NCBI GenBank assembly: GCA_024672275.1 | Contig: GCA_024672275.1_4536.1 | Length of the DNA stretch: 64,000 nt | Source: a phage | Reading direction: 5' to 3' (one strand) | Part shown: positions 3,859-63,356 of the stretch, one piece after another | Layout of the letters: every line of letters starts with the position of its first letter | Position numbering within the stretch: the first letter of the stretch is position 1 | Notes under the pieces: model-generated | Seen by the model: the letters and a program-made list of their open reading frames with translations, nothing else | Database searches by the model: none | What the model was told of the DNA's origin: nothing | Position numbers and translations under genes: made by a program

Positions 3859-4080
3859 ATGATCACTTTCGCTATTGTCGCCGTTGTTGCTGGTCAGGTT
3901 TACATAAACGATACATTCACCACAGAAGACAAGGCCGCAGGAGACATAACCGCCGTTTACAATGAGTGCAAGGCAGTAGAAAGGATGTTAGCGCCTTGTA
4001 TGCTAATGAGTGAACGCCAGGACGGGATAACAGTATTTACTAACATTGAAACAGGGTACCAAATGGTAGTAACAAAATAA
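3859..4080 (+). CDS. hypothetical protein (73 aa)
   Basis: ATG 3859; ORF track. Confidence 0.6.
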   Translation: MITFAIVAVVAGQVYINDTFTTEDKAAGDITAVYNECKAVERMLAPCMLMSERQDGITVFTNIETGYQMVVTK

Positions 4081-4083
4081 AGC

Positions 4084-4141
4084 TTGACACGGATTTAATT
4101 TTCAGTAAATTGTTACACGTAGGGCGGGAATAGTTCCCGCT
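4084..4141 (+). promoter_or_regulatory. sigma70-type promoter + GC hairpin cassette
   Basis: TTGACA 4084-4089, N16, TAAATT 4106-4111, GTTACACGTAGGGCGG box, hairpin AGCGGGAA-TAG-TTCCCGCT 4121-4141. Confidence 0.7.
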
Positions 4142-4158
4142 AAAAAGAGAGAAAGACC

Positions 4159-4512
4159 ATGAAAGCACAAAATACAATTAAAGAGTACGTCCTTGCCGCT
4201 ATCGATTTTAATGATTACAGTATTACAACCGAAAAAGAGAAGATCGCGGAATTGATGCGCCGTTTTAATTCCGAGTACTGGTACCCTGATAACCAATCAC
4301 GTTTTAATTATAGTATTGTTAAAGCACTTGCATCATGGTTACAAGGTTTGCCATCAGATATCAATATCGCTTTCGAATATTGGGAAATTGATCGCTTGTT
4401 AACATCCTGGGGATACATTAAAGAGAATAGCAGCGATGATAAAATCCAACGAGAAAGGGAAAATTATTGGCTTTATATTGCAGGCGTGATCCTTGCTTGC
4501 TCTTATGAATGA
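4159..4512 (+). CDS. hypothetical protein (117 aa)
   Basis: ATG 4159 after cassette; ORF track. Confidence 0.6.
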   Translation: MKAQNTIKEYVLAAIDFNDYSITTEKEKIAELMRRFNSEYWYPDNQSRFNYSIVKALASWLQGLPSDINIAFEYWEIDRLLTSWGYIKENSSDDKIQRERENYWLYIAGVILACSYE

Positions 4513-4518
4513 TAAACC

Positions 4519-4572
4519 TTGACAATTTTACAAAACAGTTTAAATTAACAATATAGCGGCAATGGTGCCGCT
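4519..4572 (+). promoter_or_regulatory. sigma70-type promoter + GC hairpin cassette
   Basis: TTGACA 4519-4524, N16, TAAATT 4541-4546, hairpin AGCGGCAATGGTGCCGCT 4555-4572. Confidence 0.65.
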
Positions 4573-4591
4573 CATATGAAGAGGAAACAAA

Positions 4592-4738
4592 ATGAATACA
4601 TCTAATCGCGCAGAAAAAATTCAATCTTCCAAGATCCGCAAAGCCTGGAACGAGGAAGTGATCCGCAAAGGCGACAAGCGCAATAAAACAAAGCGCGGGA
4701 AGAGTGACAAATATAATTGGATGGATTTAGAGGATTAA
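4592..4738 (+). CDS. small basic protein (48 aa, K/R-rich)
   Basis: ATG 4592 after cassette; RBS AGAGGAAA; below ORF-track cutoff. Confidence 0.45.
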   Translation: MNTSNRAEKIQSSKIRKAWNEEVIRKGDKRNKTKRGKSDKYNWMDLED

Positions 4739-4744
4739 CATAAC

Positions 4745-4772
4745 AAGGGCGCACCAAGCGCCCTTTCTTTTT
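4745..4772 (+). terminator. rho-independent terminator
   Basis: Hairpin AGGGCGC-ACCAA-GCGCCCT followed by TTTCTTTTT; identical copy at 10451-10479. Confidence 0.7.
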
Positions 4773-4793
4773 ACATGTAGAGGATAAACAAAA

Positions 4794-4979
4794 ATGACTT
4801 TAAACGAGCTTAAAACAGCCTACAGCGCAACATTAAAAATAGCCGTGCGCTACCGTGACGAATACGGTTTTATTGCGCAGGGCGTGATCCTGGGCTTTTC
4901 TGACGATGGTTTGATCTATGTTGATGCACATCATAATAAGGTAAAACCTGAAAACGTCATTAGCATAAAATATCTTTAA
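4794..4979 (+). CDS. hypothetical protein (61 aa)
   Basis: ATG 4794 with RBS AGAGGA; ORF track. Confidence 0.5.
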   Translation: MTLNELKTAYSATLKIAVRYRDEYGFIAQGVILGFSDDGLIYVDAHHNKVKPENVISIKYL

Positions 4980-42396: not shown

Positions 42397-42657
42397 TTAC
42401 TCCGCAATTTGAGCCATGAGATCACGCAGTTCGGTAAAACCGCCTACGTATGTTACCTCCCCGTTCACTTCAGACAGAATTTGTGGAAATGTGCGTGGAG
42501 GAACTCCGGTAAGATCAACAACTGTTTTAGTCATTGATTCTAAATCATAGTCTTGATCAAGACTTAAATATTCAAACTGTTTATTGCGCATGGTTAATAG
42601 TTGTTTTGACATTTCGCAAAATTGACAGTTAGGTTTACCAAAAATTACAAATTCCAT
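42397..42657 (-). CDS. glutaredoxin-like redoxin (NrdH/Grx-type), 86 aa
   Basis: Active-site CQFC in thioredoxin-fold context FGKPNCQFCE; location beside nrdAB. Confidence 0.7.
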   Translation of the reverse strand: MEFVIFGKPNCQFCEMSKQLLTMRNKQFEYLSLDQDYDLESMTKTVVDLTGVPPRTFPQILSEVNGEVTYVGGFTELRDLMAQIAE

Positions 42658-43499
42658 TACCTCTCCTTATTAAGTAATACTGCTAAAGACTGTTCAATAC
42701 CTTTATTTAAATCTGATTTTGTAAGATAGTGACTGGTTACTAATTGTGACTTCACCGGACGTGCTGCTGGAGCATTATAGGTTGAAGCTGATACCGCCGA
42801 TATCTTAACAGGTTCTGGCATCTGTGTCAAGATCTTTTCCGCAAACTCCGCCCAAGAAATAAAATGGCTTCCTGCAAAATGGTAAGTCTTAACAGACCTT
42901 GACCAACCTGTTTTTAATACTTCAAAAATAGCTTCTGCTAAATCTGGAGCATATGTTGGACAAGAGAACTGATCAGCAACAATAATAAAATCACGTTGTC
43001 CATCGTTATAGCGAGACAACATCGTTTTTAGAAAGTTATTTCCAAATTCACTATATACCGAGGCTGTTCGAATAATATATGCATTTGGGTTAACTCCTCG
43101 CACCATTTTTTCACCAAGTTCTTTCGTATACCCATAATTGTTTATTGGGTTAGGTGTAGTATCTTCAAAAATAGGATGAGAATAATTAAAAATATAGTCT
43201 GTAGAAATATGCACAAAATCAATTTTAAGTTTGCTGCACACTGCCGCAATATTCGCAGGTCCATAAGCATTAACAGCCAAAGCAGTAGCAAAATCATGTT
43301 CTGCTTTATCTACAGCCGTATAAGCGGCGCAATTAATAACACCATCTACATAATCTTCAATAATAGCGTTTCGCACAGCTTCAAAATTTGTAATATCTAC
43401 ACGTTCTTTAGGATAAATTAAAGATACATTTGAAGGAGCCACTTTACGTAAAGCTTGTCCCAGTTGTCCATTACCACCCAATACCAGATATGTTAGCAT
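42657..43499 (-). CDS. rmlD: dTDP-4-dehydrorhamnose reductase RmlD (280 aa)
   Basis: N-terminal Rossmann LVLGGNGQLG, YTAVDKAE, STDY..Y.K...E catalytic region; overlaps rmlC stop. Confidence 0.85.
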   Translation of the reverse strand: MLTYLVLGGNGQLGQALRKVAPSNVSLIYPKERVDITNFEAVRNAIIEDYVDGVINCAAYTAVDKAEHDFATALAVNAYGPANIAAVCSKLKIDFVHISTDYIFNYSHPIFEDTTPNPINNYGYTKELGEKMVRGVNPNAYIIRTASVYSEFGNNFLKTMLSRYNDGQRDFIIVADQFSCPTYAPDLAEAIFEVLKTGWSRSVKTYHFAGSHFISWAEFAEKILTQMPEPVKISAVSASTYNAPAARPVKSQLVTSHYLTKSDLNKGIEQSLAVLLNKER

Positions 43500-44059
43500 A
43501 CACCCTCACTACGCAACTGTTGAAAAGATTTAGCCATTGCATCTTTTGTTGATAAGATAGGTTTAAAACCTTCGTCAAAAATCATATCGAAGCCCCAATC
43601 GATCCCTATGTCAGGATCATCCCAACGTAAACTTTGTTCGCTAGAAGGGTCGTATGGAGTTGTGCATTTGTATTCAAAGATAGCGTCCATACTCAAAACT
43701 ATAAAACCATGTGCCAAACCAGGGGGAAGCCAAAACTGCGTATGGTGTCGTGCACGAAGAACAACACCGTCCCAAGCACCGTAAGTTGGACTATCTTTAC
43801 GTAAATCTACAGCGAAATCCAATACTTCTCCACTTACACAACGAACAAGCTTACCTTGCGGGTTATTTGTTTGAAAGTGCATTCCTCGCAAAACACCGAA
43901 GTTTGATTTAGACATATTGTCTTGAACGAAAGTTTGTTTACCAATGATATCTTCGTATTTTTGTTCATTGTATGTTTCTAAAAAGAAACCACGATCATCT
44001 TTATAAACGTCTGGTTTGATAATTACCGCACCTTCAATTTTTGTTTTTTCTACTTTCAT
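43493..44059 (-). CDS. rmlC: dTDP-4-dehydrorhamnose 3,5-epimerase RmlC (188 aa)
   Basis: Cupin signature DDRGFFLETYN, VQDN.SKS..GVLRG.HFQ, GKLVRCV.GEV.D.AVD.RK.SPT.G, DP.IGIDW. Confidence 0.9.
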   Translation of the reverse strand: MKVEKTKIEGAVIIKPDVYKDDRGFFLETYNEQKYEDIIGKQTFVQDNMSKSNFGVLRGMHFQTNNPQGKLVRCVSGEVLDFAVDLRKDSPTYGAWDGVVLRARHHTQFWLPPGLAHGFIVLSMDAIFEYKCTTPYDPSSEQSLRWDDPDIGIDWGFDMIFDEGFKPILSTKDAMAKSFQQLRSEGVC

Positions 44060-44691: not shown

Positions 44692-44900
44692 TATTCCTCC
44701 TTAATTATTTCAAACTTGGCAACACCATTTACAATAATATGACCACAAGACATAACTCCTAGCCAAGGATCGCCGTTTTTCTTCAGGCGTTTACCGAATA
44801 CATCACAAAAACCATTCTTCATTTCGGAGGCTTCATAAGAAGCCCCTTTGTCAAAAACGTCTTTGAATGTGTCGATTATACCAACACATCTCAAAATCAT
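44691..44900 (-). CDS. hypothetical protein (69 aa)
   Basis: ATG overlapping nrdB stop (TAATG); ORF track. Confidence 0.5.
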   Translation of the reverse strand: MILRCVGIIDTFKDVFDKGASYEASEMKNGFCDVFGKRLKKNGDPWLGVMSCGHIIVNGVAKFEIIKEE

Positions 44901-45985
44901 TAGAAGTCAAGCTCCTCATCATCAGAGAGATCTTTGTTAGCTGAATTCAATTTGTAATTAGTTAACTGAATCTCTTGGGCTGCTGACTGAATCAAATCAG
45001 GATTCAACCATTTTTCCATCCAAGCTAAAGGACTATGTTTAGGTGCTTTAAACTTAGCTTTCATTTTCAATCGACGATAAATAGGAGCAGCATTGAAATA
45101 AACCCACTGTTTAGACAATTCAGCGTTAAGACCTACAATAAAACGACCTTCACTAAACAGGTAGTCACACCACTGTTCCTCTTGTTCAACAACAGTGTCG
45201 AGGATCAAAGTCAACTCTTCAATATTGTCTTCGTAAATTTTACGCCAAATTGGGTCATGCAGCAATGCATCAATTACAGCATAATCCATCTTAACATGCA
45301 AGATTTCATCTAGCATAATTTTCTGGATCAGTTTACAAGCCCCAACAAACAGTTGTTGTTCTGCCATAGCAAAAGTAGCAGAGAAGGAAGATATAAACTG
45401 AATACCTTCTAATCCAATCAGGGCTACCATCCCTTTAAGAATCAGCAGTCGAAGTTCATCGTTAGCTTCAATCAATCCTAGAGCATACTTATGACCAGCT
45501 TCTTCCAACTGACCCATGATATCAGCAATGATACCCATACGATTGAAAATTTTATCATTAATCATAATCTGATTGATGACTTCAATTGGATCTGGAGTAC
45601 ATTGACGGATTATTTCAGAATACGTTAACGCATGGAGAACTTCCATTTCACTCTGCTTCATCATCATAGCACAGGCTTCATTGTTACTCAAGAATGGAGA
45701 GAACAAAGTGATGATTGATTTTGCAAGAGAATCATTTTCCCATTGGAACGATAAGTTTTTAATCATAACATCATAGTTGTTTTTAGAACAAGCTACGAAA
45801 TCTTTACGTGTCTGATCCAGATTAACTTCGTTTTCATCCCAATCTTGTGCTTTTTGAAGTTTGTAGAGTTTGTGCATTTCTGGATAAGTTACGTTAACAG
45901 AATCAAAGATCCCTAATTGTTCCCCTAAAAATACTGGATATTTTCCTGTTTTGTAAACTTCGTTATGTAAATTAATTGCTGCCAT
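44900..45985 (-). CDS. nrdB: ribonucleotide reductase class Ia small subunit NrdB (361 aa)
   Basis: Colinear with E. coli NrdB: N-terminal PVFLGE...Y....KLYKLQKAQDW..NEV, di-iron ligand region, C-terminal acidic tail DDEELDF. Confidence 0.9.
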   Translation of the reverse strand: MAAINLHNEVYKTGKYPVFLGEQLGIFDSVNVTYPEMHKLYKLQKAQDWDENEVNLDQTRKDFVACSKNNYDVMIKNLSFQWENDSLAKSIITLFSPFLSNNEACAMMMKQSEMEVLHALTYSEIIRQCTPDPIEVINQIMINDKIFNRMGIIADIMGQLEEAGHKYALGLIEANDELRLLILKGMVALIGLEGIQFISSFSATFAMAEQQLFVGACKLIQKIMLDEILHVKMDYAVIDALLHDPIWRKIYEDNIEELTLILDTVVEQEEQWCDYLFSEGRFIVGLNAELSKQWVYFNAAPIYRRLKMKAKFKAPKHSPLAWMEKWLNPDLIQSAAQEIQLTNYKLNSANKDLSDDEELDF

Positions 45986-46001
45986 TTAAATCCTCCTCAA
46001 T

Positions 46002-46024
46002 AAAAGGGGCCGAAGCCCCTTTAC
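46002..46024 (-). terminator. UUCG-tetraloop hairpin terminator (family copy 3)
   Basis: Identical AAGGGGC-TTCG-GCCCCTT between nrdA stop and nrdB RBS; - strand U-tract UUUUAUU. Confidence 0.6.
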
Positions 46025-46051
46025 GTTTACCCTTCTTCACCTGTTCTCCTA

Positions 46052-48295
46052 CTACATTTTACAGGCACTACACCCTTCGTCTTCAGAATCTTCTTGTGCT
46101 AAAGAGTCTGCTGATTTTGTTCTACTATTAAGGTAATACAATGACTTGCCACCCAATCTGGCAAAATTCAGAATAAACTGCATCTCAGCTTTCACTGATA
46201 AACGTCCACCTACCAATTTAGAATAATCTAGCCAAGAATCACAAGAAATTCCTTGGTCCGTGAATTTGGTAAAGATACCATACATTTCTGCAAGATCTTT
46301 AGCCGGAGTATCCCAGGCGGATTGGTAGAACATTTTCAGTTTTTCGTAGTCTGGAACAATAAATAATACACTACCTTTCTGACTTTGTTTATACATGATA
46401 GTATCACGAACAGGATACAGAGAGTTAGTAGTATTGCTTACCAAACTGCTGGACTCATTAGGTGCAATAGCAGCCAAAACACTGTTACGGATACCACCTT
46501 GTTCAATGATTTCAGCACGTAAGCCTTCCCAGTCCATTTTAAGATCGAAATTACCGATACTATCTACTGTTTTAGCATAAGTATCAATTGGTAGCCAACC
46601 TTGAGGCCATTTGGTCTTATCGATCCACTCCGCATTACCTTTTTCCTTAGCCAGGCGCAGAGAGGCTTTTGCCAACCAAAAGTAATGACGTTCTGCAAGT
46701 TCATGCATTAATTTTTTAGCATAAGCATCTGAATAATTTACAAAATTACTTGCCAAGTAATGCGCTAAGTTTGTAATGCCTACACCAATAGATCTACGTG
46801 CTTTAGCAGTTATTTCGTTATGTTTAAATGGATAATCCATTGTTTCAATAACGTTGTCAATTGTCAATACAGCGTAGTATGCAACATCTTCATATTCTTC
46901 AGGTAATACACGACCAGCAACAATAGAAGATAAGAAACATAAAGCCAATTCTTGATCTTCAGTATTCTCACCAGTAAAGAGATCCGGCATATTGTGGAAA
47001 GCTTTAGTCGGTAAGAAAATCTCTTGACACAGATTTGATTGATACACCGTATCCAGGAAAGGTGTATGGTTGTTAACGTTGTCAGCAAAGAACATGTAAA
47101 TACGTCCTGTTTCTGCACGTTGAACAATAATCTCTGTCAGAAGATCACGAGCCTTAACAAATTTTTTCTTAATGCGACGACGGCTTACTTTGTCATAAAC
47201 TGCATCAAACTCTTCTTCACTTTTATACAAAGCTTCATAAAGTTCAGGAGCATCATCACAACTAACTAACATCCAATCTTCGTTTTTTGCTGCTCGACGC
47301 AAGAATGAACGGTTAACAACAATAGAATAATCCAGTTTGTCTACTCGTTTATCTATAGGTGTTGTTGGATTCTTCAGTCGAATCAGATCATCAAAGTCTG
47401 GTTCAAGTATGGTGAAGGTAACTGTAGCACTACCTCCACGGCTTGCTTGCTTCGAAGCTCCAACACTATCTTCCATCCATTTCAGATACGGAAGAAGACC
47501 ACCATGAATAATACGATTATTCTTAACACCTTGACCTGTGGCACGAGTTTGAAGATTAACACCAATACCTGCGTTATTCAACGTATACTCATGAGCTAAG
47601 TAGTTAGCAATGGCTAAAGACTCTGCCGTATCGTCTGCACGGAATAAACAACAAGACGCACTTCCTTTGATTGGAGTTCGTAGAGTTGTCAGATACGGCG
47701 ATGGCAGATTAATCTTAAGATCGCTAACATAAGTATAAAGTTTTTTAATATCTTCTATACGGCGTTCTTTTGGTTGGATCTCCATAACCTTCATTGCGAT
47801 ACCAATGAAAAGAAACTGTGGAGACTCATGCACAACATCGTTTACTGCATCTCGAATAAGATATTTATCTACCATCTGACGTAAAACAGAATAACCATAA
47901 GTTAGATTTTTATTATGCTTTACAATCTTACCGATTTCTTTGATCTCTTCATCAGTATAATCCATTTTAGCCCAATGTCCACGTTCTACCATATCATGAT
48001 AAAAGGTATTCAGTGAAGGGATACTGTGGTATCCCCCATGAGCCTGTTTGTAAATCATACCCAGAAGAAGTCTTCCTGCCATATCACTGTAAGCTTGTGT
48101 TTTCTTGTCAATACACGCTGCAATCATTGCTTTATGCAGATCACGTGTAGACACACCGTCATAACACCGCTTCACAGCTTCTAATTCAATTTCAGACCAG
48201 TTTAGTTTACCTGCTGCAAATTCAGACCACTTGCGAAGTTTTTCTGGATTAAACTCCTCTGTCTTACCGTTAGATTTAGTTACAAAACGAATCAA
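46052..48295 (-). CDS. nrdA: ribonucleotide reductase class Ia large subunit NrdA (747 aa)
   Basis: ATP-cone N-terminus (VTKSNGKTEEFNPEK), active-site region SNLCQEIFLPT, C-terminal redox Cys pair CSACKM; TTG start with RBS AGGGAGGAG. Confidence 0.95.
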   Translation of the reverse strand: MIRFVTKSNGKTEEFNPEKLRKWSEFAAGKLNWSEIELEAVKRCYDGVSTRDLHKAMIAACIDKKTQAYSDMAGRLLLGMIYKQAHGGYHSIPSLNTFYHDMVERGHWAKMDYTDEEIKEIGKIVKHNKNLTYGYSVLRQMVDKYLIRDAVNDVVHESPQFLFIGIAMKVMEIQPKERRIEDIKKLYTYVSDLKINLPSPYLTTLRTPIKGSASCCLFRADDTAESLAIANYLAHEYTLNNAGIGVNLQTRATGQGVKNNRIIHGGLLPYLKWMEDSVGASKQASRGGSATVTFTILEPDFDDLIRLKNPTTPIDKRVDKLDYSIVVNRSFLRRAAKNEDWMLVSCDDAPELYEALYKSEEEFDAVYDKVSRRRIKKKFVKARDLLTEIIVQRAETGRIYMFFADNVNNHTPFLDTVYQSNLCQEIFLPTKAFHNMPDLFTGENTEDQELALCFLSSIVAGRVLPEEYEDVAYYAVLTIDNVIETMDYPFKHNEITAKARRSIGVGITNLAHYLASNFVNYSDAYAKKLMHELAERHYFWLAKASLRLAKEKGNAEWIDKTKWPQGWLPIDTYAKTVDSIGNFDLKMDWEGLRAEIIEQGGIRNSVLAAIAPNESSSLVSNTTNSLYPVRDTIMYKQSQKGSVLFIVPDYEKLKMFYQSAWDTPAKDLAEMYGIFTKFTDQGISCDSWLDYSKLVGGRLSVKAEMQFILNFARLGGKSLYYLNSRTKSADSLAQEDSEDEGCSACKM

Positions 48296-48311: not shown

Positions 48312-48554
48312 TTAATGCATATTCAAAACATCTACATCATAACCGAACTTCATTTCATTAAAAAGTCCATTAGCATATAGAAAACCTTCAAAATGAGTTA
48401 TGTCATCAAACCCTTTTGCTTTTGCTCGACGATCTGCTTCTTGTCTTTTAGGAGATAAACGTTTTGAAGTGTCTAGAATTACAGTTACATTACAACCAAC
48501 AGTTTCATCAAAATAGACTTCGATTTCACAGCCTTCATATTTATTATCAGTCAT
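48312..48554 (-). CDS. hypothetical protein (80 aa)
   Basis: Internal ATG 48554 with RBS GAGAGGG; track ATG 48566 overlaps upstream stop. Confidence 0.5.
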   Translation of the reverse strand: MTDNKYEGCEIEVYFDETVGCNVTVILDTSKRLSPKRQEADRRAKAKGFDDITHFEGFLYANGLFNEMKFGYDVDVLNMH

Positions 48555-48562
48555 TGTCCCTC

Positions 48563-48973
48563 TCATTGATTAGTATCATCTGCTTTCGCAGGATCATAAG
48601 AGTTACCGAAATCATCCATCTTAATATGTGACGCACCCCAACCTGTAAATTCTTCATCACCAAAATGAAAAATATCATTTTCTTGGTAGATTCGTTTAAA
48701 ACCACAATTAGGTGAAACAGGGAAAGTGAAAAGCGTTGTATTTGCAAACACTACTCGCTTATCGTTATTGCTTCGGATATTCACATTACGCTCAACAGAA
48801 TAGTGTGAATCTTCAGCCATACCCAGCATTACAAGCGACGCTCTAATAACAGCATTTTGTTTCTCGTGTGGGATATTACCATTGTGTTTATTTGATTCTA
48901 GTTTCCAGATAGGGGTAGACATTACAGTAGACATGCTTACGGTAGCCCAAGTTGTAGTATTTACTAATGACAT
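48563..48973 (-). CDS. dUTPase-like protein (divergent), 136 aa
   Basis: Internal ATG 48973 with RBS GAAGGAG; alignable to trimeric dUTPase motifs (SNKHNG..IP ~ RSG.G.KHG; LGMAEDSHY ~ GLIDSDY; RVVFANTTLFTFPV ~ RIAQMIFVPV) with substitutions. Confidence 0.45.
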   Translation of the reverse strand: MSLVNTTTWATVSMSTVMSTPIWKLESNKHNGNIPHEKQNAVIRASLVMLGMAEDSHYSVERNVNIRSNNDKRVVFANTTLFTFPVSPNCGFKRIYQENDIFHFGDEEFTGWGASHIKMDDFGNSYDPAKADDTNQ

Positions 48974-49027
48974 ATTTTCTCCTTCATTTTGAATGGGAGG
49001 ACTCACCTCCTCCCAGTATTGTGCTAT

Positions 49028-49055
49028 ATTATACTAAAACTAATACTAAAGTCAA
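49028..49055 (-). promoter_or_regulatory. sigma70-type promoter (- strand)
   Basis: On - strand TTGACT, N16, TATAAT upstream of dUTPase-like gene. Confidence 0.5.
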
Positions 49056-49071
49056 TAACTATTTAAACAGA

Positions 49072-50070
49072 TCACCATTTAGTATGATTTGTTAAAAGTT
49101 GACGATGTTGAATCCAGCCTTTGAAATTGCCAGACCAAAACTTACCATTACGATCTACATGGGTAATACCTGGTTCCCAAGAGTTAGAATCCCAAGGAGC
49201 ATTGATAAACAAATCTTCAAAACAGTTCTCTCCATATTGTTCGCATGTTTCTTGCATTGGAGTGGCTTGATGTTCAAACGGAGAAGCATGAACCTTGCGC
49301 CCAGTCAGCAAACGACCATAGATATCTAAAGCTTTATCTTTAGTTGCATTTAAACGACGATAGCTAACCTGTGCACAACACGAAGCTGAAATAGCTTTGG
49401 CTTCTTCCAAAGTAAGCACAACAACTTCTCCAGATTCATCTTGAACGTAGTATCCACCAAAAACAAAATGATCGTCACCTTCTGTGCCAATATTATCATA
49501 GAAATGGTCTACATAAGGTGTGTGCCATTGCCCTGGTTTCAGCACTTCTGGTGTAGATTCTTCATACTCTTTGTGCATCTCTTTAGCCAAAGCTTCGATA
49601 GTAGGATCGGCTTCTTTGTCATCACGTAGCCACCAGAAATTTTCATATTCTGTTGCTGTCAGAACTGTTTTAATTCGTTGGAAAGGTTCCAGAAGACGGT
49701 TTGCAACTTGTTTGTGGTACCCTGCCAAAGAGAATTCTTCTGCAAAACGTGCTGCACTAAGCGCGGCAAGATCCCACCACTCTTGAGCAGTATAACCTGC
49801 ATCAATAAGAGCGTCATGATCAACACCTTTATCCTGCATACCAGGTTGGTTAGCCCCAAAACGATAAGGACGAGCAGGTTGATTTCGCACCATTTCAATC
49901 AGTGTTTTAACAGGTATAGCACGGCTAGAAGCAGCATTACGACTGAACAGGCGGTGAGTCATCAATTCTGAATGAATAATACGTGGATATTCTAGTTCAA
50001 AAGTTACAATCTCTTTTCCGTCTTCAGTGATGGAATGCGCAATAATACTAGCCGAAATCTGTTTTGTCAT
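49072..50070 (-). CDS. thyX: flavin-dependent thymidylate synthase ThyX-like protein (332 aa)
   Basis: ThyX signature region FELEYPRIIHSELMTHRLFSRNAASSR matches FTFH...P.....RQ.RHR..S.N..S.RY pattern; extra C-terminal domain. Confidence 0.55.
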   Translation of the reverse strand: MTKQISASIIAHSITEDGKEIVTFELEYPRIIHSELMTHRLFSRNAASSRAIPVKTLIEMVRNQPARPYRFGANQPGMQDKGVDHDALIDAGYTAQEWWDLAALSAARFAEEFSLAGYHKQVANRLLEPFQRIKTVLTATEYENFWWLRDDKEADPTIEALAKEMHKEYEESTPEVLKPGQWHTPYVDHFYDNIGTEGDDHFVFGGYYVQDESGEVVVLTLEEAKAISASCCAQVSYRRLNATKDKALDIYGRLLTGRKVHASPFEHQATPMQETCEQYGENCFEDLFINAPWDSNSWEPGITHVDRNGKFWSGNFKGWIQHRQLLTNHTKW

Positions 50071-50079
50071 TTTTTCTCC

Positions 50080-50688
50080 TTAGTTTTTAAAATTGTTCAA
50101 AGTGTTAAAAACATCCAAACATGTTAGCCACTGATCTTCTAAACTTGTGATCACAACATTTGGTTTTTTCTTTAGTTCTTCTAGATGGTTATCTTTATAA
50201 GGCGTATTAAAATATATTTTAACCACTTCATCTGGAAAATATAGTAGGTTATCAGCCCTGTCATCTATTGCTATGTCACAAGGCAATAAGTATTTTTCTT
50301 TCGTAGCAAAAAAGCCGTTGCCAGATCCTTTGCTAAAATCAATCGTATCTAATGTTCTTAAAACATGCTTATGTTTAGAACTTAAGTGACCACCTTTTGT
50401 CACACTTGCGATCAAAAGATTGCTACCTTTTCTTGAAACATACTTTAAGAAATCTGGCATACCTGTAACAAAACCCATCGTATCATAGAGATGAGGATTA
50501 TCCAGAAATCCGTAAGGATCTATGTTGAACTCTTCCCTGAAACCAGGAAAATAGTTGGTAAGATCGTAATCTGCATTTTTTGTGAATGTGTCGATTTTAA
50601 CACCAAGGCCACTAATCTTATTCAACCATTCTAACCAAGCAACATCTAACGGAGCCACAACTAAATCCCAATCACATACTATCTGCAT
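50080..50688 (-). CDS. HAD-family 5'(3')-deoxyribonucleotidase-like protein (202 aa)
   Basis: N-terminal DxD motif (VCDWDLV) of HAD phosphatases; location in dNTP metabolism cluster. Confidence 0.4.
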   Translation of the reverse strand: MQIVCDWDLVVAPLDVAWLEWLNKISGLGVKIDTFTKNADYDLTNYFPGFREEFNIDPYGFLDNPHLYDTMGFVTGMPDFLKYVSRKGSNLLIASVTKGGHLSSKHKHVLRTLDTIDFSKGSGNGFFATKEKYLLPCDIAIDDRADNLLYFPDEVVKIYFNTPYKDNHLEELKKKPNVVITSLEDQWLTCLDVFNTLNNFKN

Positions 50689-50706: not shown

Positions 50707-50735
50707 TAGTATAGTTATCTTATACTAACTTTCAA
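50707..50735 (-). promoter_or_regulatory. putative sigma70-type promoter (- strand)
   Basis: On - strand TTGAAA, N16, TATACT upstream of HAD gene RBS. Confidence 0.35.
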
Positions 50736-51300
50736 TTTCCTGCAATAGGATTTTGACTATTTGTTTACGGCGTTTTGCTACTGTGCTTTCAGGTTCTATT
50801 TTACGCTTCTTCAACCAAGCTTTATCTTTCTTAGCTCTACACAAAGCTATTGCTTCTTTTTCAGCTTTTGCTTCTTCAAAAGATATGCCTTGCTTGTCTG
50901 CATAAGCAAGAATAGAGTTGCACAATTTACAAACCATTCGCAAATCTTCTTCTTTCACATAGATTAAACGGAAAACAAAAAGAGGAATATCATCAAAACA
51001 TTGAAGTTGTTTTGCTGCGTGAATATGATCCACTTGGAAGTCTTTCATTCCTCCTCTATGTCCACATATTTCGCACTCACAATTCCAAACTTGTTTTGGT
51101 TTTCCAGTTTTCTTGTCTATCATCACATTGCCGTCTTTATCTACTCGATCAACTTTAAAACGCCTTGCATTGATAACCTTAATTTTATTAGGGTGTCTCA
51201 TCCATGCTTTTCTAAAACATCCCCTAAGATAAGTATAAAATTCAGCTTGTGTTTTCCAGGGTGTTCCTTCACCCCACATTATTTTTGGTTCACCTGCCAA
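50725..51300 (-). CDS. HNH endonuclease (homing-endonuclease-like), 191 aa
   Basis: HNH motif CECEICGHRGG...DHIH...CKLCN; start ambiguous (TTG 51300 or ATG 51279). Confidence 0.6.
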   Translation of the reverse strand: MAGEPKIMWGEGTPWKTQAEFYTYLRGCFRKAWMRHPNKIKVINARRFKVDRVDKDGNVMIDKKTGKPKQVWNCECEICGHRGGMKDFQVDHIHAAKQLQCFDDIPLFVFRLIYVKEEDLRMVCKLCNSILAYADKQGISFEEAKAEKEAIALCRAKKDKAWLKKRKIEPESTVAKRRKQIVKILLQEIES

Positions 51301-56418: not shown

Positions 56419-57048
56419 TTATGTTTTAATCTTGCCAAAATACAATACTTCAGCTTCCTGTCTTGCTGATATAGCATCTTCAATATCAGTAAATGCTCCA
56501 AGACGGATATCTTTTCCTTGATAGGATATACGAGCAATCCATCTTTTTTCTTTCTCGCTCCACACAACACCTGTTTTACCAGAAGTGTTGTTTTTCTGTT
56601 TTCGTGTATTGTATGACTGGACAGACCTTGTAGCCCAGCGACAATTTTCTTTACTGTAATCTTTTTCCGAGTCTATTCTGTCAAGAGATAAACCTTTAGG
56701 TCTATCTCCCATATCCTCAAAAAATGCAGAGAATGAATTTCTCCAAGCATCGCAGACCTTAATACCACGACCACCGTAGTATTCAAAGTGAGTATTGTTT
56801 TTGTTATAGCATCTCCCTAACATAGCTTCCCACGATTTGTATGCTCCTGTTTGTGTTGTTTGCGGTCTACACTTCGAACAATAAGAACTTTTATTCTTCC
56901 TAAGTGTTGCCATAGTTACCGTGCAAATATTACCACAATCACAAGAACAAGTAAAACGTCTTTTGCCATGCTTGTCCCTTTCAATCTCTTCTAAGACAGT
57001 ATAACAACCACATTTCTTACCTACAAGGTCTACTCTCTTGGCTCCCAT
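56419..57048 (-). CDS. homing-endonuclease-like protein with AP2-type DNA-binding repeats (209 aa)
   Basis: N-terminal Cys cluster; AP2-like repeats W.AMLGRC....YGGRGIKVCD.W and GVVWSEKEKRWIARISYQGKDIRLGAFTDIEDA; paralogous to 62751..63356. Confidence 0.5.
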   Translation of the reverse strand: MGAKRVDLVGKKCGCYTVLEEIERDKHGKRRFTCSCDCGNICTVTMATLRKNKSSYCSKCRPQTTQTGAYKSWEAMLGRCYNKNNTHFEYYGGRGIKVCDAWRNSFSAFFEDMGDRPKGLSLDRIDSEKDYSKENCRWATRSVQSYNTRKQKNNTSGKTGVVWSEKEKRWIARISYQGKDIRLGAFTDIEDAISARQEAEVLYFGKIKT

Positions 57049-58145
57049 GTTCCCTCCACCATTTCCCGTAAACGGACACCTGTTGGTTTAGTAGGTATTC
57101 CACCATCAGAAAACTCTTCATACTCAATCTCAACAAATTTACCAATTAACATTTCGGCATTCTCTGCTTTACGATAATTGATAGTCTCATGAGCATCTTT
57201 ACGCATTAAGAATTCGACTACTTTACCATTTTCCATCTCACCTGTCAACACTCCATCGCCATTTTTATCACTTTTTGAATTTGTTACTTTAACTTCAAGG
57301 GTATGGCGAGGCTTACGTTTAATAACGTCATAAGAACGTTTATCAAATTCGTAAACTCCGTGAGCATTACGATATACTACACCTTCAGCTTTCTCAAGTA
57401 AAGCTTTTTCATAGAAAGCATCAAACTGTTCTTGGTTTTCAATATACTCTGTATGAACTACACAAATAAGCTCGTCAAGACCATAATCTTCAACTACTGC
57501 CTTAAGAGCAGCAAGAACATCAACACGTTTTTCAAACGGTAGATCTGGAACTGGAATATCGTATACGTAATAGTTCAGCAAAGGTGTATTTGCATTATGC
57601 TTCTTCCAGGCACTGTTAATTTGTTGTAGACTAAGGACACCTAACCCAGCAAACACTTCACCATCAAGAGGATGACCAACAACTTCACTAATAAAGTTTG
57701 GAATACCTTTCCAATGAGGTGGCAGGTTATACACTTCCCCAGCTTTTGATAAACACTCTCCTTTCATGTTAATCATAGAACGTAACCCGTTCAGTTTGTA
57801 TTGTGCATAACCAGGGAACACAACCCTTTCAGGATAATCTTTATAATCCTGGCATTTCATTGGTGTGGAAGGAACATGGTTTTCAGCTTCTTCTTTTGTT
57901 TTATAATAGCCATTCTTTAACTGTTTTGTCCATTTGGCAAAAGCTTCAAGTTCAGCTTGTTCTTCTGGTGTTGTTTCATTGGAACGACCAATGTTTTTTG
58001 CTTCTGCTGTATAAGATTTTTCTGTGATTTTTCCACCTACCCTTCCATGAGCTACAGTAACAACTGCACCATCTGTATACACTGTCCACTGTTTAAGTTT
58101 TCCTTTTGAATCTTTACCATACAGCGTTTGATTTGTTTGTTGCAT
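57030..58145 (-). CDS. ATP-dependent polynucleotide ligase-like nucleotidyltransferase (371 aa)
   Basis: Motif I variant YAQYKLNGLR (KxNG), motif IV-like EGVVYR, motif V-like KRKPR; internal ATG 58145 with RBS GGGAGGA. Confidence 0.5.
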   Translation of the reverse strand: MQQTNQTLYGKDSKGKLKQWTVYTDGAVVTVAHGRVGGKITEKSYTAEAKNIGRSNETTPEEQAELEAFAKWTKQLKNGYYKTKEEAENHVPSTPMKCQDYKDYPERVVFPGYAQYKLNGLRSMINMKGECLSKAGEVYNLPPHWKGIPNFISEVVGHPLDGEVFAGLGVLSLQQINSAWKKHNANTPLLNYYVYDIPVPDLPFEKRVDVLAALKAVVEDYGLDELICVVHTEYIENQEQFDAFYEKALLEKAEGVVYRNAHGVYEFDKRSYDVIKRKPRHTLEVKVTNSKSDKNGDGVLTGEMENGKVVEFLMRKDAHETINYRKAENAEMLIGKFVEIEYEEFSDGGIPTKPTGVRLREMVEGTWEPRE

Positions 58146-58366
58146 TAGTCCTCCCATTTAAAAACTGAAATTTTCAATCTGTTACACACTTCATCCAAAT
58201 CTGCGTCGAGTAACGTTGTAGATGTTGCCAACATATAATCAATGCTTGTGAAACCTTGCCCTTTGGCATAGTCAAGCATATCTTCATACATATCTTCAAG
58301 ATCACCGTCATCAAAAGTAGCTAGAAAATCCTCGTCCCCACTACGAACATAAAATGCAGTACTCAT
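58145..58366 (-). CDS. hypothetical acidic protein (73 aa)
   Basis: ATG overlapping upstream TGA; ORF track. Confidence 0.5.
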   Translation of the reverse strand: MSTAFYVRSGDEDFLATFDDGDLEDMYEDMLDYAKGQGFTSIDYMLATSTTLLDADLDEVCNRLKISVFKWED

Positions 58367-58899: not shown

Positions 58900-59304
58900 T
58901 TATTGAAGTTTAAGTGAACCACGAAGACGTTTCTCTTGCTGATCACGGATATATTGTGGAACCTCGTGAATTGAATCATTACCGTGCCTATTTTCAACAA
59001 CTAAAGAGATAACTTGATAACCAAATTCTTCAGCAAGAGCTAGATAAGGTTTAAGTTCTTTCTCTGTGGTTGAAGTATTAGAAACAATAATCTTGTTAAG
59101 ATTAGATGCCATAGCATCACGAACAATACCCTGACACCATGCGTGTGCTTTACCTACATTTTCTGGCTTCCAATCGTAAACACCACTCTCTGTGTAATGA
59201 TATTGATCTGCCTCACAGATAGGCCAATAACCTTCAGAAATAATTTCTGCTACTGTAGATTTACCAGCACCTGAAACACCACGTAAAATGATAAGTTGTT
59301 TCAT
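58900..59304 (-). CDS. P-loop polynucleotide kinase-like protein (134 aa)
   Basis: Walker A GVSGAGKST at N-terminus as in T4 Pnk kinase domain; directly follows RNA ligase gene. Confidence 0.55.
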   Translation of the reverse strand: MKQLIILRGVSGAGKSTVAEIISEGYWPICEADQYHYTESGVYDWKPENVGKAHAWCQGIVRDAMASNLNKIIVSNTSTTEKELKPYLALAEEFGYQVISLVVENRHGNDSIHEVPQYIRDQQEKRLRGSLKLQ

Positions 59305-60237
59305 TTATCCTCCAAAAAAGTTTTCGATTTTTTCACGTCGCTCTTGCTGATTTAAAGCAGCCCATTGAATCTTCGTAAAATTATTTCGAATCCATTCTAA
59401 CAAAGCGTAATATTCTTCGTCAACCATTTGTTTGGCATTTTTTGGATTATCCCAAATCAGATCCCACTTTTTATCTCCACCGCGCATAAGAAACTTCTTA
59501 GTAAGATAGTGTGGTGATTTAATTTTTAAAAGTAAGTTGAACGGATAGTTTGTTTCACGAACTACAAACCCTTCGTGTTTACAATGTTTAGACATTTCAA
59601 CAACATCTGAAAACTTAACCATTGGATGAACTTCAGGACGCTTAAATTTGGTGACAGAAGCAATTCCATCAAGAGCACCTTCAGGTAACATAAAACTTGT
59701 CCCATCAGGATTTTGAATTCTGGCACCAATTAAGTATGCACCTGGTTCTTCTTCGACAATATGCGGATCAGAAGGATCACAGATTTCAAACAGGAAAGTT
59801 GCTTTTGCACTCTCTGCCCATTTGATGAAATGTTCTATGTCATCGCACTCTGAAACAATATGATTCTTTGCAATACTTGCAAAATCTGATTCAAGGCTTC
59901 CTGTTGTCGATACAATAAGTTGACCTTTATATACACCTACAGAGGCCATAAAACCATTTACTTTACGAACCACATCTACAAGTTCATCCGCTGGTAGATC
60001 TGTGCCATTCTCAAAACGATTAAAAATCTTAGTGAAAGGCCAAATAACAACATTGTCATCAGCATCAACAACGATTCCGCGACATTCTAGAAGACGAGAA
60101 TCAATGCTCCATAAGTTATCCCAGAAAACTTTGTTCTTATACTTAAGAACAGATAGGCCAGAATACTCTCCTTCTTTATATGTTTTCTTATGAACTAAAC
60201 CTTTTTCAACCAAATCGTCGCAATTAAATTTAGTCAC
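59305..60237 (-). CDS. RNA ligase, T4 Rnl1-like (310 aa)
   Basis: Colinear with T4 RnlA N-terminal half: LLECRGIVVDADDNVVIWPFTKIFN (cf. [29 protein letters not shown]), motif I KVNG, EGFVVRE, LLLKIK; GTG start with RBS AAAGGAGAG. Confidence 0.75.
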   Translation of the reverse strand: MTKFNCDDLVEKGLVHKKTYKEGEYSGLSVLKYKNKVFWDNLWSIDSRLLECRGIVVDADDNVVIWPFTKIFNRFENGTDLPADELVDVVRKVNGFMASVGVYKGQLIVSTTGSLESDFASIAKNHIVSECDDIEHFIKWAESAKATFLFEICDPSDPHIVEEEPGAYLIGARIQNPDGTSFMLPEGALDGIASVTKFKRPEVHPMVKFSDVVEMSKHCKHEGFVVRETNYPFNLLLKIKSPHYLTKKFLMRGGDKKWDLIWDNPKNAKQMVDEEYYALLEWIRNNFTKIQWAALNQQERREKIENFFGG

Positions 60238-60238
60238 A

Positions 60239-60790
60239 TTACTCTCCTTTGATTATTTTGTGATGGTCTACAGTCACGATATCTCGTTTACCCATCATAG
60301 AAATTATCTCATCAAAATGCAAGATTTTTCCGTGTGCATCCCAACCCACATCTAACATTTTACCATAAGCTTCATCAGGGAAAGATCCGTGGGAATGCCC
60401 GTGTAGCATGATTGATCCACGCCCTTGTTTATTCCAGGAGGCTATAGGGTAATGGCTTAAGACGAAGAACAGCTTCTGATATTTCACTTCGTCATAATAC
60501 ACCACTTCTCCATACTCTGCAAGCACTTCTCGGTGTTTGCTGTAATCATGGTTCCCAACACAGTAGGTGATATCTCCTTGGAGACGGGAAGCAATTTTAC
60601 GGGTATCTTCTTCAGTTCCGAAACAGAAGTCGCCCAAATGCCACATCTTAACACCAGGAGTAGTAGCACATTTGTTCCATGCTTCGATCAAGGCTTCTGT
60701 CATGTGGTCCATATCTTCCCACGGACGATATTCAGGAGCAAACTCTCGAATACGTTTATGCATAAAATGCAAATCGCTTGTAATAAACAT
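60239..60790 (-). CDS. calcineurin-like metallophosphoesterase, candidate polynucleotide 2',3'/3'-phosphatase (183 aa)
   Basis: MPE motifs SDLHFMH, HLGDF, GNHD, LHGHSHG; immediately upstream of RNA ligase and kinase. Confidence 0.6.
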   Translation of the reverse strand: MFITSDLHFMHKRIREFAPEYRPWEDMDHMTEALIEAWNKCATTPGVKMWHLGDFCFGTEEDTRKIASRLQGDITYCVGNHDYSKHREVLAEYGEVVYYDEVKYQKLFFVLSHYPIASWNKQGRGSIMLHGHSHGSFPDEAYGKMLDVGWDAHGKILHFDEIISMMGKRDIVTVDHHKIIKGE

Positions 60791-62513: not shown

Positions 62514-62791
62514 TTTGCATTCCTCTTGTTGTTGATAACATCCATAGCAGTATATGGTTTATTAGTGCCATGATACTCCAGAATCATTGGAGAGCCTTCT
62601 TGCACTACTTCAAAGATACCATAAACAGAACTTTCAGCAAATACCATTTGCTTCGTGCCTTCATCGTTTACAACGAGAGAAAACTTCTTGCCTGTCCCGT
62701 TGAGGATCTCATATTTCTTGCCAGCAGTGAATAATCCAGAGTACCACTCATTATCTGTTGCTTTTACACACTTCAGGAAAGTCTTGATCAT
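62510..62791 (-). CDS. hypothetical protein (93 aa)
   Basis: RBS AGAGGAGATAAA + ATG; ORF track. Confidence 0.55.
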   Translation of the reverse strand: MIKTFLKCVKATDNEWYSGLFTAGKKYEILNGTGKKFSLVVNDEGTKQMVFAESSVYGIFEVVQEGSPMILEYHGTNKPYTAMDVINNKRNAK

Positions 62792-63356
62792 TTCTTTTTA
62801 TCTCCTCTTTTAATCTATCTACTATACGAACATCATAGACGCCCTCTGTATACATGTCAATAACTTCTTCAAGATAAACTTTTTTAGCTTTTCTGTAAGC
62901 TTCTTTTGCTGCCTCTTCTGTAGAAAAACTTCCAAGATAGAAGCCCTTACCGAACTTACGGATGCTCGCTTGGTAGACCTTATCTCTCTTGTGATATGTA
63001 ACACCCCTATAAGATGTCGAACCCATAAGTGCAAAATTCACATACTCTGGTATAAAGACACACGTGCTTGGTGAATAAACTTTAGAATCGGAAAGAAAAT
63101 CCTTATCTAAAACTTTACCTTCCCAAGATTGACTCTCCATCCAGTTTTTGAAGTTAGAGAAGACCAACCATTCATCACAAACTTGAGCATTTTTGTATGC
63201 TGGCATCCTTGCCAACTGCTTCTCACAGTAACACCTACGCAACATATCCGTCCATCTCTCGTAATAAGGGCATGTCTTCCTTTTACCATCTTCTCCCCAA
63301 AAAGTAACTGGAACTTTTGAATCATTTATTCCTTTTCCGAACACTAGTTTTTTCAT
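62751..63356 (-). CDS. homing-endonuclease-like protein with AP2-type DNA-binding domain (201 aa)
   Basis: AP2-like segment YRGVTYHKRDKVYQASIRKFGKGFYLGSFSTEEAAKEAY; W..MLRRCY box shared with 56419..57048. Confidence 0.5.
   Translation of the reverse strand: MKKLVFGKGINDSKVPVTFWGEDGKRKTCPYYERWTDMLRRCYCEKQLARMPAYKNAQVCDEWLVFSNFKNWMESQSWEGKVLDKDFLSDSKVYSPSTCVFIPEYVNFALMGSTSYRGVTYHKRDKVYQASIRKFGKGFYLGSFSTEEAAKEAYRKAKKVYLEEVIDMYTEGVYDVRIVDRLKEEIKRNDQDFPEVCKSNR

Follow-up and report, generated by a model that had tools for sequence, protein, structure and literature searches.

Does a phage gene block that sets an aberrant flavin-dependent thymidylate synthase beside a ribonucleotide reductase make ordinary thymidylate, or does it supply a modified pyrimidine for the phage DNA? 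The question is raised by positions 48563-50688 of a 64-kb stretch of phage DNA (contig GCA_024672275.1_4536.1 of assembly GCA_024672275.1; the whole stretch is called the window below). In a preliminary description, three open reading frames (ORFs) of this region were taken for a dUTPase-like gene, a ThyX-like gene with a C-terminal extension and a HAD-type nucleotidase gene, together forming a route from deoxyuridine monophosphate (dUMP) to thymidine monophosphate (dTMP) whose departures from canonical motifs might signify another substrate. All three ORFs were found at the positions named there, all on the minus strand (Table 1), in a 2.4-kb region that is 99.0-99.5% identical to many Phapecoctavirus genomes, including Escherichia phage vB_EcoM_01 (99.5%). 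The window derives from a Phapecoctavirus, that is, a phAPEC8-like Escherichia coli myophage of the Stephanstirmvirinae (about 150 kb).

Only two of the three flagged genes encode recognisable enzymes of nucleotide metabolism. We regard the locus as, probably, a standard nucleotide-precursor block containing a rearranged ThyX that likely makes dTMP, a probable HAD-type deoxynucleoside monophosphate (dNMP) phosphatase, and a 136-residue (aa) protein that is not a dUTPase. What sets the locus apart is the apparent order of the ThyX chain segments, and this is presented first.

A ThyX-fold protein with a probably rearranged chain

The proposed homology of the 332-aa protein to ThyX proved to be real. 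The protein matched Pfam Thy1 (PF02511) with 35.0 bits (cutoff 24.8), at profile positions 59-191 of 191 only, and the ThyX fold is well supported by a predicted model, which AlphaFold2 built from a 71-sequence alignment with a mean pLDDT (predicted local distance difference test) of 94.6. The relationship is distant: no PDB sequence was matched by phmmer, and identity to the canonical enzymes T. maritima TM0449 (1KQ4/1O26), PBCV-1 A674R (2CFA/4FZB) and M. tuberculosis Rv2754c (2AF6) is about 17-23%.

For a comparison of chain order, the T. maritima ThyX sequence used was confirmed as identical to 1kq4_A residues 13-232, 119 relatives were collected, and hhalign was used for alignment. When the phage family profile was searched against the PDB with hmmsearch, T. 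maritima ThyX was recovered in three pieces in swapped order, with profile positions 221-264, 26-55 and 138-179 matching residues 32-73, 73-102 and 172-213 of the 1kq4 chain, respectively. In hhalign the correspondence took the form of two blocks that abut exactly at T. maritima residues 60|61 (Table 1). The first block contains T38-H39-R40, S48-S49-R50-A51, R125, N144 and R149; the second, lying C-terminal to it, corresponds to helices 1 and 2 with the His53 loop and contains S236 and H261-A-S-P-F-E-H267. Whereas canonical ThyX is collinear, the phage protein has the equivalent of T. maritima residues 20-60 after that of residues 61-199.

Restoring the canonical order in the phage profile raised the hhalign score. 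With residues 181-272 spliced in front of 16-180, one collinear match to T. maritima residues 20-199 was obtained (score 80.1, probability 97.3%, E 1.7e-11), and with 186-268 joined directly onto 21-180 the score reached 92.7 (probability 98.1-98.7%, E 1e-13 to 1e-15). On a re-ordered single sequence the Pfam coverage grew from positions 59-191 to 14-191 in one stretch with a gain of only 0.9 bits; the C-terminal 152 residues alone gave no Pfam match. Sequential structure aligners covered 135-158 residues, equal to the size of the first block. The linker between the blocks, with two or three beta strands in the model, has no match to canonical ThyX, and neither does the tail of residues 269-332 (hhalign probability 0.3%).

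The chain order is best described as a circular-permutation-type rearrangement with about 85 residues added at the old junction. The segment with Ser30 and the His53 loop, canonically N-terminal, would have been placed after the canonical C-terminus, and at the old junction roughly 20 residues would have been added as an N-terminal strand and roughly 60 as a tail. The earlier figure of roughly 100 extra C-terminal residues therefore holds as a number, the phage protein being some 110 residues longer than a 220-aa ThyX (N-terminal strand, linker and a tail of some 60 aa that carries the invariant Arg323), but not as a simple add-on: the C-terminal part is mostly a relocated canonical segment followed by a clade-specific tail.

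Several points speak against this chain order. The canonical profile is narrow (Thermotogota-type relatives with at least 57% identity), and two placements of the hairpin formed by T. maritima residues 1-19 (query residues 6-14 or 202-219) score alike. With the 85 intervening residues left in place, no purely circular permutation improved the hhalign score; since a clean permutation fails in this way, the relation is one of permutation plus insertion. Finally, the evidence for the rearrangement comes from profile alignments and from the succession of secondary-structure elements in the model. It could thus be an alignment artefact, the protein being a collinear, divergent ThyX with an unrelated C-terminal domain in which HASPFEH arose by convergence or chance. 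Such a reading would agree with the modest match of each block alone (hhalign probability 81-93%), with the independent E-value of 20 for the second block in hmmsearch, and with the small Pfam gain on re-ordering. We nevertheless consider it unlikely. The N-terminal 20 residues are too few for the canonical two helices and His loop, so that no collinear counterpart exists before the THR motif, while the blocks abut exactly and their joining nearly doubles the score (from 46 to 80-93). The matched segment keeps the equivalents of Ser30, His53, Thr/Ser55, Glu58 and His59 at 95-100% conservation, H261|S263 is an intein site in the same way as the THR and SSR motifs (see below), and the sequential aligners cover nothing beyond a block-1-sized stretch.

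The rearranged architecture was not described in the literature searched, where coverage of subscription journals was thin and a prior description is possible; it is apparently an undescribed variant. Stern et al. 2010 state that they excluded sequences differing from RHRX7S at more than two residues.

Catalytic residues retained and replaced

The hhalign alignment served to locate the catalytic residues, whose frequencies were counted in 123 representatives of the clade; the T. maritima residue is given first, followed in brackets by the phage residue and its frequency. Shared with canonical ThyX are Ser30 (S236, 100%), His53 (H261, 100%), Glu58 (E266, 95%), His59 (H267, 99%), His79 (H39, 99%), Arg80 (R40, 80%), Asn85 (N45, 96%), Ser88 (S48, 98%), Arg90 (R50, 99%), Arg147 (R125, 99%), Asn169 (N144, 99%) and Arg174 (R149, 100%), and Thr55 corresponds to a serine (S263, 98%). 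The phage protein differs from canonical ThyX at Arg78, replaced by Thr (T38, 96%), Tyr91, replaced by Ala (A51, 99%), Arg165, replaced by Thr (T140, 98%), and Arg74, replaced by Ala or Ser (S34 in the window).

The string THRLFSRNAASSR, in which the preliminary description had placed the RHR-x7-S signature, comprises residues 38-50. Measured against RHR-x7-S(-x-R), it has a single deviation, Thr for the first Arg, with the His, the second Arg, the Ser and the final Arg kept. The set that binds and activates dUMP (Ser88, Arg90, Arg147 and Arg174) is present in full, together with the stacking His53. A further group of residues, G77, M78, K120, H183, P185, S228, N315, Q321, R323, R30 and R238, is specific to the clade and invariant or nearly so within it; in the tail, R323 is conserved at 100%, Q321 at 96% and N315 at 94%. 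The motif departures seen earlier in the ThyX-like gene are thus real, but they are not a peculiarity of this phage, being fixed across a clade of thousands that includes chromosomal genes of Pseudanabaena.

Two of the replacements concern residues to which weight has been attached. A structural study of 2025 (PMC11940539) reported Tyr91 and Ser88 as strictly conserved and Tyr91 mutants as 1000-fold slower in flavin oxidation; it described Tyr91 as critical and Arg78 as a conserved residue that stabilises the charge of FADH-, the reduced flavin adenine dinucleotide anion. Tyr91 has also been proposed as the general acid and as the clamp of His53. As read from the alignment, the clade has kept the substrate-binding and activating set and has lost two residues considered important. 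Arg323, His183, Lys120, Arg30 and Arg238 presumably compensate for the residues replaced.

Inteins at the catalytic motifs

Many of the longer clade members (520-680 aa) are interrupted by inteins whose endonuclease domain is of the HNH or LAGLIDADG type and whose junctions show the expected Cys1 and Asn/+1 Ser or Cys. At least four insertion sites are in use, all of them at catalytic motifs; in the numbering of the window protein they are H33|S34, the stretch after R40 to L42, S48|S49 and H261|S263, the last directly after H261. Essential enzymes typically have their inteins in the best-conserved motifs of the active site, and the presence of inteins at the THR, SSR and relocated His motifs argues that both motif blocks are functional and under selection. 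Known canonical ThyX genes are intein targets as well. The long members had also been considered as tandem duplications, the classical intermediate of a permutation; this was ruled out, as they are intein-containing genes.

Distribution of the clade

The ThyX-like family is very large and mainly phage-borne; it gave 6905 matches among 8000 candidates scored. At 50% identity the clade comprises 4998 representatives, 1640 of them below 1e-30, and most are 290-350 aa long and align over their full length. By tblastn the family was detected in 1035 of 50,697 phage records (roughly 2%; 991 at full length), including rV5-like, phAPEC8-like and phi92-like phages, Vibrio phage ICP1, PAK_P1-like Pseudomonas phages, N4-like Gamaleyavirus and phages of Caulobacter, Flavobacterium and Myxococcus, where the copies are mostly annotated plainly as "thymidylate synthase". 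The genomic position beside ribonucleotide reductase, which the phage gene has in common with canonical ThyX, recurs among these phages: an rV5-like phage has the order dNMP kinase, HAD homologue, thyX, nrdA, nrdB, grxA, nrdD, and nrdA lies near thyX in ICP1. A dCTP deaminase gene is found near thyX in an N4-like phage.

The clade also has cellular members. A scan of prokaryotes (one genome per species, profile from a 16-sequence alignment) yielded 193 encoding loci; about 40 among the 80 listed were labelled as Pseudanabaena-type cyanobacteria, of which six were inspected. On the complete chromosome of P. minima (NZ_CP159508.1, locus 3995-4822), a 275-aa gene with the same swapped motif order is flanked by cbiC, recO and genes for a precorrin methylase and a GAF protein. 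The neighbours in five other Pseudanabaena-type genomes, named from their N-terminal sequences, likewise look like housekeeping genes (AhcY, DnaE, SufC, peroxiredoxin, PurU); the same neighbours recur at only 3-4 loci, though all those inspected are of the housekeeping kind. The Pseudanabaena versions (271-275 aa) lack the middle of the phage tail and keep its terminal NFxGxxxxR ("NFTGFQAYR"). That cells stably keep a copy speaks for thymidylate as the product of the clade.

Thymidylate or a modified base

The 332-aa protein is most likely a flavin-dependent thymidylate synthase that would convert dUMP to dTMP by the usual ThyX chemistry, with the methylene group of methylenetetrahydrofolate relayed to dUMP by reduced flavin (FADH2). 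This preference for plain dTMP synthesis is based on the adjoining NrdAB genes, the conserved neighbouring HAD gene, the inteins at the catalytic motifs and the reported restriction sensitivity of related phages.

A ThyX-type enzyme regenerates tetrahydrofolate rather than producing dihydrofolate, and a phage in which no dihydrofolate reductase was found fits such an enzyme. The annotations of the complete, 99%-related genome LR597654.1 contain no other thymidylate synthase and no dUTPase, dCMP (deoxycytidine monophosphate) or dCTP deaminase, dihydrofolate reductase or thymidine kinase. Queried by tblastn with T4 Cd and with ThyA, Dut, FolA, Dcd and Tdk of E. coli, that genome gave nothing better than E 0.035; such negatives are insensitive, T. 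maritima ThyX itself failing to detect the phage ThyX.

Restriction sensitivity has been reported in the work on the BASEL collection (PMC8594841), where Vequintavirinae and their relatives are called "exceptionally susceptible" to restriction-modification and seem to be without effective protection. The phAPEC8 cluster (Phapecoctavirus) is placed in that grouping, and the phages tested were Vequintavirus and phi92-like isolates. By extension to the present phage, this sensitivity would argue, indirectly, against a protective modified pyrimidine.

The assignment to dTMP synthesis has its own difficulties. With both Tyr91 and Arg78 absent from the clade, the chemistry could differ; the score of 31.5 bits against the NCBIfam equivalog model for thyX, TIGR02170, is far below the cutoff of 87.9; and no assayed member of the rearranged clade was found in the literature searched. 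The restriction data are indirect evidence for unmodified thymine, with no Phapecoctavirus among the phages tested, and the HAD protein scores under its Pfam gathering threshold.

These difficulties allow for a clade with altered chemistry or substrate, which would release 5-hydroxymethyl-dUMP, or methylate UMP or dCMP, and feed a modified base into the phage DNA. The clade-wide replacement of Arg78 and Tyr91 and the failure of TIGR02170 are consistent with it, the HAD nucleotidase encoded next to it might, in principle, clear away a canonical nucleotide that competes, and the window carries the dTDP-sugar genes rmlC and rmlD. It is nonetheless a very unlikely reading. The equivalents of Arg174, Arg90, Ser88 and Arg147 are 98-100% conserved, and the clade occurs in more than 1000 genomes of very different phage groups (rV5, ICP1, PAK_P1-like, N4-like) and, in Pseudanabaena, sits on the chromosome amid housekeeping genes, in a cell that needs thymidylate. 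Phages of the group are reported to be highly restriction-sensitive; no gene for a hydroxymethyl-dUMP kinase or other hypermodification function is present in the annotations of the complete related genome, and a ThyA-type dUMP hydroxymethylase is the starting enzyme of the known pathways of thymidine hypermodification (PMC8989533). PolB, the ThyX-fold C5-methylase of UMP and dUMP in polyoxin biosynthesis (4P5A), is a relative of T. maritima ThyX (E 3.7e-34, residues 6-208), and there was no sign that the phage enzyme prefers ribonucleotides. There is a similarly slim chance that the clade is a mechanistically distinct flavin-dependent pyrimidine C5-methylase, in which Arg323, His183 and Lys120 would rebuild the site and which in some phages would have another product or substrate (5-hydroxymethyl-dUMP, a ribonucleotide or cytosine).

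The suggestion of a modified pyrimidine is accordingly judged unlikely from the conserved uracil-binding residues, the cellular copies and the restriction sensitivity reported for related phages. Of the proposed route from dUMP to dTMP, the ThyX and HAD genes beside nrdAB remain as plausible servants of dTMP metabolism, while the dUTPase part fails, as set out below.

A probable HAD phosphatase beside thyX

The assignment of the 202-aa protein as a HAD nucleotidase is plausible from its motifs, if marginal by score. Its motif I reads D6-W-D8-L-V and its motif IV, read from the sequence, is "IDDR" at residues 150-153 (D151, D152). Pfam NT5C (PF06941) matched profile positions 5-161 of 180 with E=5e-5 and 23.7 bits against a cutoff of 24.8. 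It thus shares with the NT5C 5'(3')-deoxyribonucleotidases of the human cdN/mdN type the DxDx(V/T) and "IDDR" motifs and a similar length, and differs from them in a score just below threshold and in having no solved relative detectable by sequence (phmmer against the PDB). It belongs to phrog_420 and has no NCBIfam match.

Its association with thyX is conserved: in an rV5-like phage, the gene immediately preceding thyX encodes a protein of 37% identity that keeps DxDxT/V and IDDR. The family was present in 408 phage records, sometimes beside a thymidine kinase or dNMP kinase gene, and is confined to large myophages of enterobacteria, Vibrio and Aeromonas. Most likely the protein acts as a dNMP phosphatase that would adjust the dUMP/dTMP pool.

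The 136-aa ORF is not a dUTPase

The start of the third gene is most likely the ATG at 48973 (136 aa) rather than the GTG at 49006 (147 aa), because an AAGGAG Shine-Dalgarno sequence precedes it, MSL begins 20 of 20 homologues, and the deposited records annotate 411 nucleotides (nt); the GTG falls inside a hairpin in the intergenic gap.

By sequence, profile or predicted fold, the 136-aa protein is not a dUTPase but a lineage-specific protein without assigned function. It had no match in Pfam, NCBIfam or PADLOC and hit only phrog_15711, to which no function is assigned; PADLOC gave no matches on any of the four ORFs submitted. Among 5.8 billion proteins only 21 clusters of homologues were found, the named ones from phAPEC8-like and phi92-like phages. 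In their alignment, the nonapeptide LGMAEDSHY, on which the dUTPase claim had rested, has no more than an invariant L and G and a nearly invariant M and Y, and its would-be catalytic Asp is D, N, E, R, T or K. Resemblance to the trimeric dUTPases (Dut, PF00692) is limited to size (136-150 aa) and the chance likeness of this one string; the five conserved motifs and a profile match are absent, and the predicted secondary structure and fold differ, with no beta jelly-roll. Alignment of the family with E. coli Dut by hhalign gave a probability of 0.1%. An rV5-like phage has an unrelated ORF in this place, and the 136-aa ORF is absent where rV5-like phages keep HAD-thyX-nrdAB.

That the three genes form one dUTPase-ThyX-nucleotidase module, with the 136- or 147-aa protein as an extremely divergent dUTPase supplying dUMP, can be dismissed as a hardly credible reading: the gene adjoins thyX and the nonapeptide loosely resembles dUTPase motif 3, against which stand the missing family matches, the failed alignment with Dut, the variable Asp, the absence of the gene from rV5-like phages with the conserved neighbours, and a promoter-like site that separates it from thyX.

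In LR597654.1 the orthologue of 48563-48973 (47067-47477) is named "minor head protein", and other records call it hypothetical; nothing was found in support of the former name. The ORF should be annotated neither as "dUTPase" nor as "minor head protein".

Organization of the locus and other genes in the window

From 44 to 64 kb every gene is on the minus strand, and the order of transcription is HNH endonuclease, HAD, ThyX, a 98-nt gap, 136-aa ORF, 84-aa ORF, nrdA, nrdB. The flagged genes had been placed downstream of nrdAB; on the coding strand they sit upstream, with nrdA and nrdB (44900-48295) directly downstream of the 84-aa ORF, whose start overlaps the stop of the 136-aa ORF. The promoter-like site in the gap (48974-49071) is identified only by its likeness to the consensus, and such sites, 30 of them across the region against 25.7 expected, are no more frequent than by chance. 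On its 3' side follow a hairpin with a perfect 7-bp stem (GGGAGGA-GGTGAG-TCCTCCC) and then the AAGGAG sequence. The 136-aa ORF is predicted to open the next transcription unit, nrdAB included. The hairpin sits in the predicted 5' leader of this unit and could be a regulatory leader.

Table 1 Features of the locus and of the ThyX-fold protein (window positions; Tm, T. maritima ThyX numbering).
Feature	Position	Strand	Remarks
nrdB, class Ia ribonucleotide reductase	44900..45985	-	ORF; orthologues so annotated in 99%-identical phages
nrdA, class Ia ribonucleotide reductase	46052..48295	-	ORF; orthologues so annotated in 99%-identical phages
84-aa ORF, no assigned function	48312..48566	-	phrog_15807; no Pfam match
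136-aa ORF	48563..48973	-	alternative GTG start 49006, 147 aa
Sigma-70-like promoter match	49028..49055	-	TTGACT-16-TATAAT, 11/12; in 98-nt gap between thyX stop and next ORF
ThyX-fold protein, 332 aa	49072..50070	-	
Clade-specific tail, residues 269-332	49075..49266	-	ends N315-F-x-G-W-I-Q321-x-R323
ThyX block 2, residues 226-268	49267..49395	-	matches Tm 20-60; hhalign 81-93%, score 44-45 (native order 81.2%, 44.4)
Linker, residues 175-225	49396..49548	-	joins canonical C-terminus to relocated segment; invariant H183, P185
ThyX block 1, residues 21-174	49549..50010	-	matches Tm 61-199; hhalign probability 84.7-90.9%, score 46-47 (native order 84.7%, 46.1)
THR-x7-SSRA motif, residues 38-51	49918..49959	-	counterpart of RHR-x7-SGRY
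HAD-like (NT5C-like) protein, 202 aa	50080..50688	-	
HNH/endonuclease VII-like, free-standing homing-endonuclease-like gene	50725..51300	-	phrog_1985; directly upstream of HAD gene
MazG/PRA-PH-like all-alpha NTP (nucleoside triphosphate) pyrophosphohydrolase, 241 aa	55480..56205	-	Pfam PRA-PH, 28.1 bits (cutoff 21.3)

Elsewhere in the window, a phage-encoded pyrophosphatase for dUTP or dCTP has a single candidate, the MazG/PRA-PH-like protein, put forward from its profile match. The dTDP-rhamnose genes rmlD (42657-43499) and rmlC (43493-44059) lie on the minus strand, with rmlA and rmlB not in the window; the 99%-related phages phAPEC8_ev052 and P3322 have all four genes at this position, and putative dTDP glycosylation machinery has been noted in phi92-like phages (PMC8594841). 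A possible RNA-repair set, also on the minus strand, comprises an AAA_33 kinase-like gene (58900-59304), a T4 Rnl1-type RNA ligase gene (59305-60237) and a metallophosphoesterase gene (60239-60790). An ATP-dependent DNA ligase is encoded at 57030-58157 and a homing-endonuclease-like protein of 201 aa at 62751-63356 (minus strand), the latter with an AP2-domain match that falls short of the threshold (32.2 bits, threshold 33.3). The GC skew turns from positive (up to about 28 kb) to negative (beyond about 30 kb), a switch that may mark a change of coding strand; those genes that were inspected, starting at 35.5 kb, run on the minus strand.

Implications for the ThyX family

The thymidylate module of the window is an ordinary one, and what appears to be new is the architecture of the enzyme. 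About 5000 clusters (50% identity) make up a clade that appears to be permuted in chain order, and the rearrangement may explain why curated models fail on it, TIGR02170 missing its members and Pfam Thy1 covering only two thirds of its own length, which sets the clade apart from canonical ThyX. Having neither Tyr91 nor Arg78, the clade constitutes a natural test of the roles proposed for these two residues.

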